Of a DNA stretch of 64,000 nucleotides, positions 51,169 through 54,586 are shown piece by piece; the stretch's first letter is position 1; the number at the start of each line of letters is the position of its first letter. The stretch is from an uncultured Verrucomicrobiae bacterium (lineage in GTDB: Bacteria; Verrucomicrobiota; Verrucomicrobiia; Chthoniobacterales; JAFAMB01): NCBI GenBank assembly GCA_963762565.1, contig CAVXLD010000001.1, positions 128,001 through 192,000 of the forward strand. The letters are read 5' to 3'. The position numbers and the translations under genes were made by a program. The notes under the pieces are model-generated. The model ran no database searches and was not told the origin of the DNA. It saw only the letters and a list, made by a program, of their open reading frames with translations.

Positions 51169-51918
51169 ATGCCGATCAGGAAAGAATCCGGGAATCGCGT
51201 TTTTAGTTATTTTTGCCGGTATTTGGTGCGTCTGATCTTTTCTTGGTCGTGTCGAGTCCATCGGCTCCGAAAGAGTCAAGAGTACCCGAGTGGACCGTTT
51301 ATTGTGGTGGCAAACCACATCAGCCATTTCGATCCGCCAATGCTCGGATGCTGGTTTCCGCGGTACATCGACTGGATGGCCATGGAGGAATTATATAGTA
51401 AACGCTGGAGCGCATGGCTCATGCGTTCGCTCTGCGCGATTCCGGTGAAACGGGCTGCCGGTGATTTCGCTTCCTTACGGGCCGCGCTGGGTCGACTGAA
51501 GCTTGGCCGAGTTGTCGGCATTTTTCCGGAGGGCGGCATTCGGGCGGGGACAGGATCGATTCTAGAAGGAGCGCCGATTTGGGGAGGGTTTGCCGGGCTC
51601 AGCATCCTCTCGGATAAACCGGTCGTTCCCTGTGTTATCATCGGGACTGATCGTCTTTACCGGCCTAAGAATTGGCTGCCATTCCGCCGTGTAGAAATAT
51701 GGATGGGGTTCGGCGAGGCGATTCAGCCTCCAAACGATGTCCCGCGGGAACAAGCTCAAGCGGTTTTAGTCGACCGTGTCAGAGCATCCCTAAATGCACT
51801 CAAAGAAGAGCTGGTCCGACACTACGGGCTTCGTCCCGATGACTTGCCTCAAACACCGCAGTACCGGAAAAGAGAAAACGCTACGCCGACAAACAGAAAG
51901 GGCGGTTCGGCTGGCTAG
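51169..51918 (+). CDS. 1-acyl-sn-glycerol-3-phosphate acyltransferase (PlsC family)
   Basis: NHISHFD, FPEG motifs. Confidence 0.88.
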   Translation: MPIRKESGNRVFSYFCRYLVRLIFSWSCRVHRLRKSQEYPSGPFIVVANHISHFDPPMLGCWFPRYIDWMAMEELYSKRWSAWLMRSLCAIPVKRAAGDFASLRAALGRLKLGRVVGIFPEGGIRAGTGSILEGAPIWGGFAGLSILSDKPVVPCVIIGTDRLYRPKNWLPFRRVEIWMGFGEAIQPPNDVPREQAQAVLVDRVRASLNALKEELVRHYGLRPDDLPQTPQYRKRENATPTNRKGGSAG

Positions 51919-51940
51919 CTCGAAGATTTTTGGAAGAAAA

Positions 51941-52032
51941 TGGGTTGGGTGGGACTCGAACCCACAACCAACCCCGAACTCCGAAATTCTTCGCGAGCAG
52001 GAGCTTTCGGGGCTGCTCTACCATTGAGCTAC
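51941..52032 (-). repeat. tRNA-Lys-derived repeat (D arm to 3' end) with anticodon loop replaced by a nested hairpin
   Basis: Identical to the tRNA at 51941-51972 and 52012-52032. 51973-52011 reads CCCGAA[CTCCGAAATTCTTCGCGAGCAGG]AGCTTTCGGG instead of GCCTTAAAAGGGC. Confidence 0.9.
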
Positions 52033-52283
52033 ATCTCGGGACCGCTCTTGAGTAGGTAGATCGCGATCTGCGGATTCTTTTTCGCTTTGAGTTGGCGCTC
52101 AAGCAGTCTCGCCGACCGAATGTCCGGCATTTGCTTGGTAGCGACGAGCTCTAAGGGCAGACCAAACCGTCGGGTAGAATGGACCTTGCCACGTTGGTGT
52201 TCGCCGAAGCGCCGATCGAGATTTTCGGTCGACCCGATATAGTGCCCGCCACAAGACCCACGAATGATATAGACCCACGCCAT
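52029..52283 (-). CDS. Stand-alone GIY-YIG nuclease (84 aa)
   Basis: MAWVYII...HYIGST.NL.RR..EH..G...ST......ELV......ARLLERQLK; stop TAG lies within the tRNA-derived repeat. Confidence 0.88.
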   Translation of the reverse strand: MAWVYIIRGSCGGHYIGSTENLDRRFGEHQRGKVHSTRRFGLPLELVATKQMPDIRSARLLERQLKAKKNPQIAIYLLKSGPEM

Positions 52284-52295
52284 CCTAACCAAAAA

Positions 52296-52367
52296 TGGGT
52301 TGGGTGGGACTCGAACCCACAACCAACGCCTTAAAAGGGCGCTGCTCTACCATTGAGCTACCAACCC
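52296..52367 (-). tRNA. tRNA-Lys (TTT)
   Basis: GGGTTGGTAGCTCAATGGTAGAGCAGCGCCCTTTTAAGGCGTTGGTTGTGGGTTCGAGTCCCACCCAACCCA folds as a cloverleaf; no encoded CCA. Confidence 0.95.
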
Positions 52368-52407
52368 AAAAAATCTGCATTCCATTCTTCCCCTTGGCAT
52401 CCCTAAG

Positions 52408-52461
52408 CCACAACCAACCCCGAAAGCTTTCGGGGCTGCTCTACCATTGAGCTACCAACCC
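52408..52461 (-). repeat. tRNA-Lys-derived repeat (5' end to T-stem) with anticodon loop replaced by a palindrome
   Basis: Minus strand GGGTTGGTAGCTCAATGGTAGAGCAGC-CCCGAAAGCTTTCGGG-GTTGGTTGTGG, then divergence. Confidence 0.9.
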
Positions 52462-52537
52462 CGGGAAAACGGACTGGAATACTATAGCTAAAACGGAATG
52501 CCGCAAGCGGTTTTGAGCTGCGGTTTGCGTGAAGTCG

Positions 52538-53116
52538 TCAAAACAGATCCTGAAGCCGGACCTCGACATCCGGGAACGCTTGGAAAGCAACGATCCCCTG
52601 AGAGACGACAGTACCTTCATATTTGCCGTTCGCATTCAGGCGAAATACTCGGACGAACGCATTCGCCAGATCGATGATCCAATACTCTGGAATGCCAGCG
52701 CTCTGGTAAGCCTGGAGCTTTTTTTCAGAATCGTATTTCAGGCTGGTATCTGACACCTCGACTACGAGATAGATTTGTTGCGGCAAAATGTGTTGGCGTC
52801 GGGTTCCTGCATCTGTCGTGAATAGAACCAAATCGGGCTGCAGTTCATTAAAGTCCGGGATCGGAATCGGCCGTCCCGGACCAACCTTGAACCGGCCTTT
52901 CTTTTGCTCGCCGAAGATTTCGTTGAGCCTTTCCAGGATAAATTGATGCTCAGGACCGATCGGCGCCATTTGGATAAGGAGACCATCGAACAGTTCAACC
53001 CGGTCGGTTGGTTGCAGAACACCACTTTCGCCAAGCCTATGGTACTCCGCCACGGTGAGCCGTCGTAAGGAGAAGGCAGCTTCCTCAGCAGGGTTGGACA
53101 AAACTGATGAAGCCAT
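52538..53116 (-). CDS. Uma2 (DUF820) family endonuclease-like protein
   Basis: LTVAEYHRL, RVELFDG, QPD, LVVEVSDTSL.YD...K...Y..AGIPEYWIID. Confidence 0.92.
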   Translation of the reverse strand: MASSVLSNPAEEAAFSLRRLTVAEYHRLGESGVLQPTDRVELFDGLLIQMAPIGPEHQFILERLNEIFGEQKKGRFKVGPGRPIPIPDFNELQPDLVLFTTDAGTRRQHILPQQIYLVVEVSDTSLKYDSEKKLQAYQSAGIPEYWIIDLANAFVRVFRLNANGKYEGTVVSQGIVAFQAFPDVEVRLQDLF

Positions 53117-53701: not shown

Positions 53702-53851
53702 ATCTACAAGGTTTTTAACGTAGGACCGGGCGATGGGTTACGGGAAAAGGCGAGGCCATGCGGAGTGATGGAGTAGTGGAGCTCTGCGCTGTCGGGTTGG
53801 AGCGTGCGAAGTGGACGGTCATCGGGTGCACTTCAGCGGTGTCGTCGCGTA

Positions 53852-53873
53852 ATTCTGACGGCAGCGTCAGAAT
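53852..53873. promoter_or_regulatory. Candidate regulator binding site
   Basis: ATTCTGACG-GCAG-CGTCAGAAT inverted repeat ~95 bp upstream of the repeat-protein ATG. Confidence 0.45.
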
Positions 53874-53968
53874 CTACTGACGAGTCCGGGCAAAACGGCT
53901 CAGAAATACTTGTCCCAGGGGATGTTTTTCCGTGCGACTCAGCCGGAAAGACCGTATTGGCTGAGTTT

Positions 53969-54586
53969 ATGAAAAGATTCCGCTTGACTGCTTTCGTTGT
54001 GGCTAGCGCGCTGTCGCTAACAACCGCCAATGCGATGCCCGATTTGGGCCGCGAAACCGGGAAGTTTATCCGGCAAGAACAACCCGCACCAAAGGGAGTA
54101 CGGACTTTTGAGCCGGCTAAATTACCGGTAGCAAAAGGAAGCGATAATACAAAGGTGTCGATGGCAGTACCGCTACATCCTGGCGACGGGAATCTAGCGA
54201 TGGGAGTACCGCTTCGTCCCGGCAACGGCATTCTAGCGATGGGAGTACCGCTTCGTCCCGGCAACGGCATTCTAGCGATGGGAGTACCGCTTCGTCCCGG
54301 CAACGGCATTCTAGCGATGGGAGTACCGCTTCGTCCCGGCAACGGCATTCTAGCGATGGGAGTACCGCTTCGTCCCGGCAACGGCATTCTAGCGATGGGA
54401 GTACCGCTTCATCCCGGCAACGGCATTCTAGCGATGGGAGTACCGCTTCATCCCAGCAATGGCATTCTAGCGATGGGAGTACCGCTTCATCCCAGCAATG
54501 GCATTCTAGCGATGGGAGTACCGCTTCGTCCCGGCAACGGCATTCTAGCGATGGGAATACCGCTACGCCCACCGACGGCATTCTAG
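53969..54586 (+). CDS. Secreted protein with tandem 13-aa units (MGVPLRPGNGILA)
   Basis: Signal peptide MKRFRLTAFVVASALSLTTANA, ~42-aa linker, 10 full units plus a partial 11th. May extend to 54651 if a 1-nt deletion is corrected. Confidence 0.7.
   Translation: MKRFRLTAFVVASALSLTTANAMPDLGRETGKFIRQEQPAPKGVRTFEPAKLPVAKGSDNTKVSMAVPLHPGDGNLAMGVPLRPGNGILAMGVPLRPGNGILAMGVPLRPGNGILAMGVPLRPGNGILAMGVPLRPGNGILAMGVPLHPGNGILAMGVPLHPSNGILAMGVPLHPSNGILAMGVPLRPGNGILAMGIPLRPPTAF

Follow-up and report, generated by a model that had tools for sequence, protein, structure and literature searches.

In a stretch of 64,000 nucleotides (nt) from an uncultured Chthoniobacterales bacterium (GenBank contig CAVXLD010000001.1, positions 128,001 to 192,000; here the window, its genome being G000), we analyzed a unit of about 520 base pairs (bp) on the minus strand that joins an intact tRNA-Lys(UUU) gene, a small gene for a GIY-YIG nuclease and two partial copies of the tRNA. 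Both partial copies carry a hairpin in place of the anticodon arm. Read in the tRNA sense, from 52512 to 51941, the order is a conserved upstream block, the 5′ partial copy (copy C), a 39-nt spacer, the intact tRNA, a 12-nt linker, the nuclease open reading frame (ORF) and the 3′ partial copy (copy A). We call such a unit a cassette. Its parts are:

52462..52512, minus strand: conserved upstream block adjoining copy C on its 5′ side; its hexamers TTGCGG ... TAGTAT/TATAGT resemble a promoter (reading made by eye)
52408..52461, minus strand: copy C, a 5′ partial copy of tRNA-Lys(UUU) with a hairpin in place of the anticodon arm, from alignment to the intact gene
52413..52441, minus strand: 29-nt conserved block of copy C, GAGCAGC-CCCGAAAGCTTTCGGG-GTTGGT, its palindrome at 52419-52434
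52369..52407, minus strand: 39-nt spacer between copy C and the intact tRNA
52295..52368, minus strand: intact tRNA-Lys(UUU) gene (ARAGORN; Rfam RF00005, 77.9 bits)
52029..52283, minus strand: GIY-YIG nuclease gene, 84 amino acids (aa), Pfam PF01541; codons 52283-52032, stop codon TAG 52031-52029
51941..52032, minus strand: copy A, a 3′ partial copy of tRNA-Lys(UUU) with a hairpin module replacing the arm, from alignment and a partial Rfam match
51967..52018, minus strand: 29-nt block of copy A, its loop interrupted by a nested 23-nt insert (51979-52001)

The intact gene is the only tRNA-Lys(UUU) among the 43 tRNA genes of G000, and at this locus ARAGORN called it alone as a tRNA. Copy A spans tRNA positions 7-73 and copy C positions 1 to about 54, the latter without the greater part of the T arm and the 3′ acceptor strand. 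Apart from the swapped stretch, each copy agrees exactly with the intact gene, copy A over 33 + 21 nt and copy C over 27 nt. Rfam recognized copy A as a partial tRNA (33.8 bits, model positions 7-64, with 33 nt replacing the 7-nt loop); neither ARAGORN nor Rfam matched copy C, and neither copy has a complete cloverleaf with an anticodon loop. An earlier note on this DNA had described two altered tRNA copies with the same palindrome at the anticodon arm, one bearing a nested 23-nt hairpin, and had taken the change for a replacement with fixed boundaries rather than drift, leaving copies that cannot decode. Our analysis bears this out, positions of palindrome and insert included, save that neither copy is a whole tRNA. 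The nuclease gene between the intact tRNA and copy A had been overlooked.

That gene begins with an ATG 12 nt past the intact tRNA, and its stop codon TAG coincides with tRNA positions 8-10 of copy A. The product matches the Pfam GIY-YIG family (PF01541, E = 8.5e-14) over residues 2-72 of 84 and no other domain. Its AlphaFold2 model is one compact domain (pLDDT 89.6), and Foldseek returned GIY-YIG folds only, with UPF0213 (1ZG2) and Slx1 at the top. No NCBIfam model matched above its cut-off: TIGR01453, a model of group I intron endonucleases, reached 18.4 bits against a cut-off of 56. All of 15 cassette proteins share Y5, G17, H29 and E62, and Y15, R25, R31 and N70 are each kept in at least 90% of them; these are residues of the GIY-YIG catalytic type. 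The ratio of nonsynonymous to synonymous substitution rates (dN/dS) was 0.06-0.22 in the seven computable pairs, three further pairs being saturated at synonymous sites, and 0.11-0.15 between the window gene and its copies in the related genome G004. The nuclease is under purifying selection.

The closest described parallel to this arrangement is found in the Ssn proteins, single-domain, monomeric GIY-YIG nucleases some 94 aa in length; they cleave single-stranded DNA at a point a few bases upstream of a hairpin repeat (PMC11893778). At 84 aa the window protein, too, is a single domain within the size of Ssn proteins, at most about 100 aa. A hairpin motif flanks 42% of the ssn homologs on both sides, and in the Ssn motif the sequence of the stem is required, whereas the loop is dispensable and accepts extensions; the motifs differ from homolog to homolog (PMC11893778). 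The window gene likewise has hairpin blocks of the same orientation on its 5′ and 3′ sides (52413-52441 and 51967-52018).

The 16-nt palindrome CCCGAAAGCTTTCGGG at 52419-52434 is the sole match in the window at two mismatches or fewer, against 0.07 expected. In copy A its halves, CCCGAA (51973-51978) and AGCTTTCGGG (52002-52011), are parted by the 23-nt insert. G000 as a whole holds nine palindrome sites at one mismatch or fewer, versus none for a reversed control, so that the pattern exceeds what chance would give. What is swapped is a 20-nt module, GC-CCCGAAAGCNTTCGGG-GT, within the 29-nt conserved block. In relatives, the same module replaces the whole 17-nt arm of tRNA-Met and tRNA-Lys(CUU) backbones, in which the native arm ends differ, and it therefore enters as a unit; the backbones that carry it are Lys(UUU), Lys(CUU) and two tRNAs with a CAU anticodon. 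The earlier note had read the GC..GT beside the palindrome as the remaining base of the anticodon stem. Judged by these other backbones, it is not leftover stem, and its agreement with the first and last two bases of the native stem in tRNA-Lys(UUU) is a coincidence.

Folded as single-stranded DNA, the 29-nt block forms a stem of 10 pairs closed by a 4-nt loop (-9.7 kcal/mol, z = -4.0). To see how far it varies, we drew on 125 hairpins from metagenome loci selected by protein similarity (described below). Each of the twelve stem positions varied in at most five of the 125 and the four central positions in 30, 12, 7 and 24, figures capped by the ascertainment of these hairpins at two mismatches or fewer. 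The flank GAGCAGC was present in 109 and GTTGGT in 115. Tolerance of loop changes in the Ssn motif fits both this central variation and the nested insert (PMC11893778). The hairpin of copy C is identical in G000 and G004 although the synonymous divergence (dS) of the nuclease is 0.7-0.9. Because the stem stays unchanged while synonymous sites are saturated or diverged, the hairpin sequence itself is selected. It is fixed in sequence and not just in pairing, the sole clear compensatory stem variant being L051, a locus with a long-branch nuclease; the outer ends of the partial copies differ between loci. In 3′ copies, the C-terminal coding sequence of the nuclease lies upstream of GAGCAGC, and many of these genes end in a stop codon (TAG or TGA) that overlaps the block. 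The functional unit is thus the 29-nt block rather than the tRNA remnant.

The insert of copy A leaves the outer stem of the fold preserved. It is identical in locus L144. Related inserts, reversed with respect to the flanking tRNA sequence, are present in the Met cassette L056, in L175 and in L232 of genome G015 (19 of 23 nt identical in L232); these contain a second CGAAAGCTTTCG palindrome and so form a hairpin within a hairpin loop. Because it recurs in the same hairpin of Lys- and Met-type cassettes of other genomes, the insert is not a private mutation. Either a segment of the loop flips between the inverted arms that enclose it, or insertion into the palindrome can take place on both strands. 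As a dispersed family of G000 it was rejected: at up to five mismatches the genome gave only the insert itself, other matches being chance-like. Locus L232 stands apart from all others in a second respect, its tRNA-Lys sequence lying just upstream of the nuclease gene on the opposite strand.

The earlier note had proposed a search for the palindrome in other tRNA copies, and it does recur in relatives and at other tRNA types. We compared the tRNA-Lys loci of 19 relatives, 18 of which were evaluated (L023 was left out). A 5′ copy of the hairpin type was present in 4 of the 19 (G004, G020, G003 in decayed form and G006 as a variant) and an intact tRNA-Lys gene alone in 14. In G004 the layout is complete and the unit of nuclease and hairpin occurs twice in tandem, the nuclease gene of G020 is truncated, and G005 and G012 carry empty alleles. 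Where the 5′ copy is absent, the upstream block abuts the intact tRNA-Lys gene directly (G005 L010, G012 L017 and G001 L009). Genes of the cassette type (E < 1e-30) were found in 5 of 41 related genomes.

A scan for the module pattern in one genome per species returned at least 119 stretches. Among the 80 loci fetched, 41 had both a tRNA and the nuclease, 19 a tRNA only, 4 the nuclease only and 16 neither; among these last, some are contig ends and roughly nine are matches by chance in other phyla. Almost every genuine case comes from a soil genome of Chthoniobacterales or Candidatus Udaeobacter. A second set of 80 metagenome loci, picked by protein similarity alone and so free of hairpin bias, gave the same picture from the side of the gene: a hairpin followed 3′ of it in 68 of 78, an intact tRNA ended at most 30 nt upstream in 59 of 74 (46 Lys-UUU, 10 Met and 3 Lys-CUU), and a 5′ hairpin copy preceded that tRNA in 35 of 57. 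The module recurs at more than 100 public loci, always accompanied by a small GIY-YIG gene or its remains; decayed or frameshifted nuclease genes are frequent. Variants include tandem 5′ units, tandem nuclease-plus-hairpin units, permuted orders and full-length hairpin "tRNAs" (L146, L150, L151 and L171). Every locus displayed has one tRNA copy with a real anticodon arm, the remaining copies having the hairpin. One DNA contig (run X4) joins 52456 to 52289; considered as an excision product, it was set aside, since it most likely represents another strain with the order tRNA then hairpin copy, as in L144.

Relatives also hold paralogous small nucleases, 38-42% identical to the window protein, just after tRNA-fMet (L234, L252 and L236), tRNA-Asn (L238-L240) and tRNA-Pro genes (Pro-GGG, L253). 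Each of these genes is followed by a partial copy of its own tRNA, in which both hairpin and junction differ from those of the window cassette: the gene stops at a TAA within the anticodon loop, which is retained, and the hairpin takes the place of the 3′ stem strand and the variable loop. At fMet the hairpin is TCCCGCG..CGCGGGA or TCCGGCA..GCCGGA, at Asn it is TCCGCC..GGCGGA and at Pro GTCGCC..GGCGAC. The fMet-type stem TCCCGC/GCGGGA is the core of NTS, the motif of the Neisseria Ssn system, and the fMet-type junction, ...TCATAA-TCCCGCG..CGCGGGA-TC, is much like the NTS core with its upstream TCAT (PMC11893778). The cassette nucleases cluster by tRNA type, needing 3 changes on the tree compared with a mean of 11 after shuffling, and none of 200 shuffles was as low.

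Starting from the established architecture, its recurrence, the purifying selection on the protein, the conserved stem sequence and the subfamily-specific hairpins, we read the locus as a tRNA-lodged cassette of an Ssn-like nuclease and its cognate hairpin, seated in the tRNA-Lys(UUU) transcription unit, and give this a probability of roughly 0.55. It looks like a barely described selfish DNA element. The hairpin belongs to the cassette and did not arise by editing; most likely it is the DNA site recognized by the cassette's own nuclease, as in the Ssn family. The nuclease would bind or cut the hairpin, its substrate would be single-stranded DNA, and the cassette would be, or once have been, mobile. 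The partial tRNA copies may be recombination products that also act as homology arms, through which the cassette could occupy orthologous tRNA genes, multiply there and pass from one to another, always with one intact tRNA retained. A double crossover, in the intact tRNA and in the 3′ copy, could carry gene and hairpin to a naive tRNA locus in such a way that an intact tRNA remains, and nicks at the hairpins could give rise to tandem arrays. The patchy presence, broken genes and orphan hairpin copies fit a cycle of gain, decay and loss.

Several observations weigh against this reading. By sequence, the closest solved structure is that of a UPF0213 protein, BH0048 (1ZG2, E = 2e-5, about 30% identity). 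Between G000 and G004 the cassette (81%) and a flanking gene (81%) have diverged equally, and from these sequences the cassette looks vertically inherited within the genus, with no recent transfer evident. The phage collection held no matching relative, and the plasmid collection only distant ones, on three large plasmids. G000 has only three exact copies of the palindrome, of which this locus, with its split copy included, accounts for two; the remaining sites in G000 are apices of unrelated palindromic repeats, not dispersed in the manner of the Neisseria NTS. A homing model faces an immunity problem, an unchanged intact tRNA always lying within the cassette. No model stated here accounts for the cognate intact tRNA between two hairpin copies, nor for the escape of the intact tRNA from cutting, were the native arm the target.

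A wider version of the idea would make stand-alone GIY-YIG nucleases of the Ssn type the drivers of a widespread and so far undescribed class of mini mobile elements that use tRNA genes as universal homology arms. Lineage-specific hairpins at or beside the anticodon arm would then mark the junctions, one intact tRNA would be kept for the survival of the host, and dispersed Ssn motifs such as NTS could descend from tRNA junctions. We hold this generalization to be tentative and, on balance, rather doubtful.

Could the hairpin act as RNA instead? Transcribed hairpin-bearing tRNA pieces might be processing or stability signals for the nuclease mRNA, decoys of RNase P/Z or of modification enzymes, or an antitoxin-like inhibitor of the nuclease, a view close to that of the earlier note. 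The pieces do lie within the transcription unit, with the native upstream block ahead of copy C; the hairpin begins at the stop codon or only a few bases from it, as a 3′ stabilizer would; the closing G-T pair of the module forms on the sense strand only; and a few loci have the full-length hairpin tRNA-like copies listed above. In addition, a contig from an RNA library (soil metatranscriptome run X15, record 10, from a close relative) extends from the 5′ hairpin across spacer, tRNA and linker to the first nuclease codons, and another (record 9) covers the hairpin of copy A with its insert, the flanking genes having zero depth. These contigs hint weakly at transcription of the entire unit; they keep an RNA role in play but do not favor it over DNA recognition: they may derive from DNA, and neither strand nor ends are visible in them. 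At 85% likeness neither of two RNA runs covered the body of the nuclease gene or the flanking genes, which is uninformative either way. Half of the cloverleaf is missing from most copies, which also makes the tRNA mimics or decoys suggested in the earlier note unlikely, and the outer ends of the copies vary while the 29-nt block is fixed in sequence. The only clear compensatory stem variant is that of L051, subfamily-specific hairpins point to recognition by a protein, and characterized GIY-YIG enzymes act on DNA (PMC11893778). We therefore regard an RNA-level role as unlikely. Somewhat less likely still is a domesticated host function, in which an immobile nuclease-hairpin pair limits recombination or the uptake of single-stranded DNA at tRNA loci, or drives local tRNA amplification. 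Known relatives offer precedents, since SsnA modulates transformation (PMC11893778) and the phage nuclease SegB amplifies tRNA segments (PMC13096335), and the purifying selection on the protein, the apparent vertical descent within the genus and the tandem arrays of 5′ units and of GIY-YIG-plus-hairpin units would all suit a host function. The distribution suits it poorly: it is patchy (5 of 41 genomes for the gene, 4 of 19 tRNA-Lys loci for the 5′ hairpin copy), decayed or frameshifted genes are common, 19 of 80 loci have the tRNA with a hairpin copy and no nuclease, and such gain, decay and loss is typical of selfish elements.

The other explanations are far less probable. Genomic islands that integrate into tRNA genes commonly leave partial tRNA copies beside the intact gene, and the two copies might be remnant attachment sites of an integrase-borne island once seated in tRNA-Lys. 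That reading is largely refuted: the unit measures only about 520 bp, the four neighboring ORFs scanned include no integrase, island repeats keep the native tRNA sequence where here the same foreign module replaces the arm at four tRNA types, and one copy is the 5′ part, which integrases do not duplicate. Within its genus (g1) the cassette diverges like its flanks, as would a single old functionless mutation or conversion passively inherited in spare copies. The conservation pattern refutes this, the stem being invariant across lineages with saturated synonymous sites, present in Lys(UUU), Lys(CUU) and two CAU-anticodon backbones and accompanied in every case by the nuclease gene or what is left of it; the palindrome is neither confined to this locus nor the trace of one old mutation, as the earlier note had allowed for, and is instead widespread and conserved. 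A general process of hairpin-loop editing, which that note had inferred, left no sign in our data. None of the other 42 tRNA genes of G000 has the module nearby, so that it occurs in one of 43 tRNA neighborhoods, and it travels with the GIY-YIG gene or its remains. Nor do the data contain any link to the PrrC-type anticodon nucleases that had been brought up in connection with tRNA-Lys(UUU).

Some further features of the locus and its genome deserve mention. Over 51850-52560 a sigma-70 consensus scan detected neither a promoter in the orientation of the tRNA nor a terminator where the hairpins lie. Read by eye, the homologous spacers of related loci carry, in several subfamilies, TTGCCR-N15-17-TAAWAA or TTGACG-N17-TAAGAA; the spacer of the window matches this pattern weakly and was not flagged by the consensus scan. 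Four neighboring ORFs in the family scan encode an acyltransferase, a DUF2270 protein, a Uma2 protein and the GIY-YIG nuclease. The Uma2-family gene (PF05685, 52538-53116, minus strand), which separates the upstream block of tRNA-Lys from the next conserved gene, occurs in G000 only. The gap that holds it measures 837 nt in G000 versus 82-210 nt in relatives of the same genus, a comparison by which it looks like a recent insertion. Further along, an ORF at 53804-54586 (plus strand) contains about 12 tandem copies of a 13-residue unit (MGVPLRPGNGILA).

Elsewhere in G000, the other exact palindrome sites (C7:345314 and C7:371584) were considered as tRNA-derived or known RNAs and rejected, having no tRNA context. 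About 19 copies of an intergenic repeat of about 100 nt, GGGGAGCCGC...GGCAGCC-A-CCGAAAGCNTTCGG-G-GTAGACAGGCGGCTCCC (for example C1:962453 and C3:384302; L224 and L225), have an apex and immediate flanks that resemble the hairpin block of the cassette. This repeat with its apex CCGAAAGCNTTCGG was likewise rejected as tRNA-derived or a known RNA: it has no tRNA context and no Rfam family, and we took one sub-threshold match to a microRNA model for chance. The pattern CCGAA-N4-TTCGG occurs 63 times in the genome versus 9-28 times for five control palindromes. A 20-nt hairpin, GCCCCGAAATTCTCCGGGGT, with three mismatches to the module, lies a few hundred bases from tRNA-Asn and tRNA-Gly(UCC) (C3:469442 and C10:519392). 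The 92-nt "tRNA-Ala(cgc)" called by ARAGORN at C3:959130-959221 is a tandem direct repeat of a GC-rich 46-mer and probably a false call.

The Ssn nucleases were described as recently as 2025 (PMC11893778). The cassette offers a close Ssn analog in a fixed and recognizable setting, tRNA transcription units, with its own hairpin in broken tRNA copies. If the pairing of nuclease and hairpin is true, the 29-nt block is a substrate prediction for a family of tiny programmable cutters of single-stranded DNA, and the recurrent "tRNA pseudogenes" that confuse annotation are explained. The pairing would also suggest a new route for selfish DNA, with the most conserved genes as landing pads, and would mean that "spare tRNA copies" are not by default decoding or decoy RNAs.

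Among known systems, UPF0213/YhbQ (BH0048, 1ZG2) and the nuclease domain of Slx1 are closest in solved sequence and fold, at about 30% identity. Slx1 is a structure-specific nuclease that acts on branched DNA, and we know of no association of either UPF0213/YhbQ or Slx1 with hairpins or tRNA. In IS200/IS605 TnpA and the REP/RAYT systems, as here, a small nuclease gene is bracketed by hairpins, which are there recognized on single-stranded DNA, an analogy that is drawn for Ssn as well (PMC11893778). Those enzymes have the HUH fold rather than GIY-YIG, and at our locus no transposition ends, target tetranucleotides or dispersed copies are evident. SegB of phages T4 and T6 shares with the cassette a GIY-YIG gene among tRNA genes: it is a free-standing homing endonuclease encoded in a tRNA gene cluster, its site overlaps a conserved tRNA motif, and it drives the inheritance and tandem amplification of neighboring tRNA segments (PMC2330249, PMC13096335). 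SegB is larger, multi-domain and phage-borne and cuts double-stranded DNA, whereas the protein described here has 84 aa and is chromosomal. No phage relative of it was matched and it falls short of the homing endonuclease model (18.4 versus 56 bits); the available text on SegB loci describes no partial tRNA copies substituted by hairpins.

The Ssn proteins, represented by SsnA of Neisseria meningitidis (CDD cd10448), come nearest in design. Common to both are a single-domain GIY-YIG protein of less than 100 aa, hairpins on both sides with conserved, oriented flanks, a variable and extendable loop, a stem conserved in sequence, and different motifs for different homologs (PMC11893778). Here, by contrast, the hairpins lie inside partial tRNA copies and an intact tRNA lies within the unit, while PMC11893778 makes no mention of tRNA. 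The Lys/Met-type stem CCCGAA/TTCGGG differs from NTS and from SRM, and only the fMet type of the relatives shares TCCCGC/GCGGGA; nor does G000 have tens to hundreds of dispersed copies of the motif. Our literature search, which did not extend to the supplements of the Ssn paper or to possible verrucomicrobial homologs there, found no paper that joins GIY-YIG nucleases with hairpin-substituted or partial tRNA copies or with Udaeobacter. The locus is apparently an unpublished, tRNA-lodged variant of the nuclease-plus-hairpin design of the Ssn type.

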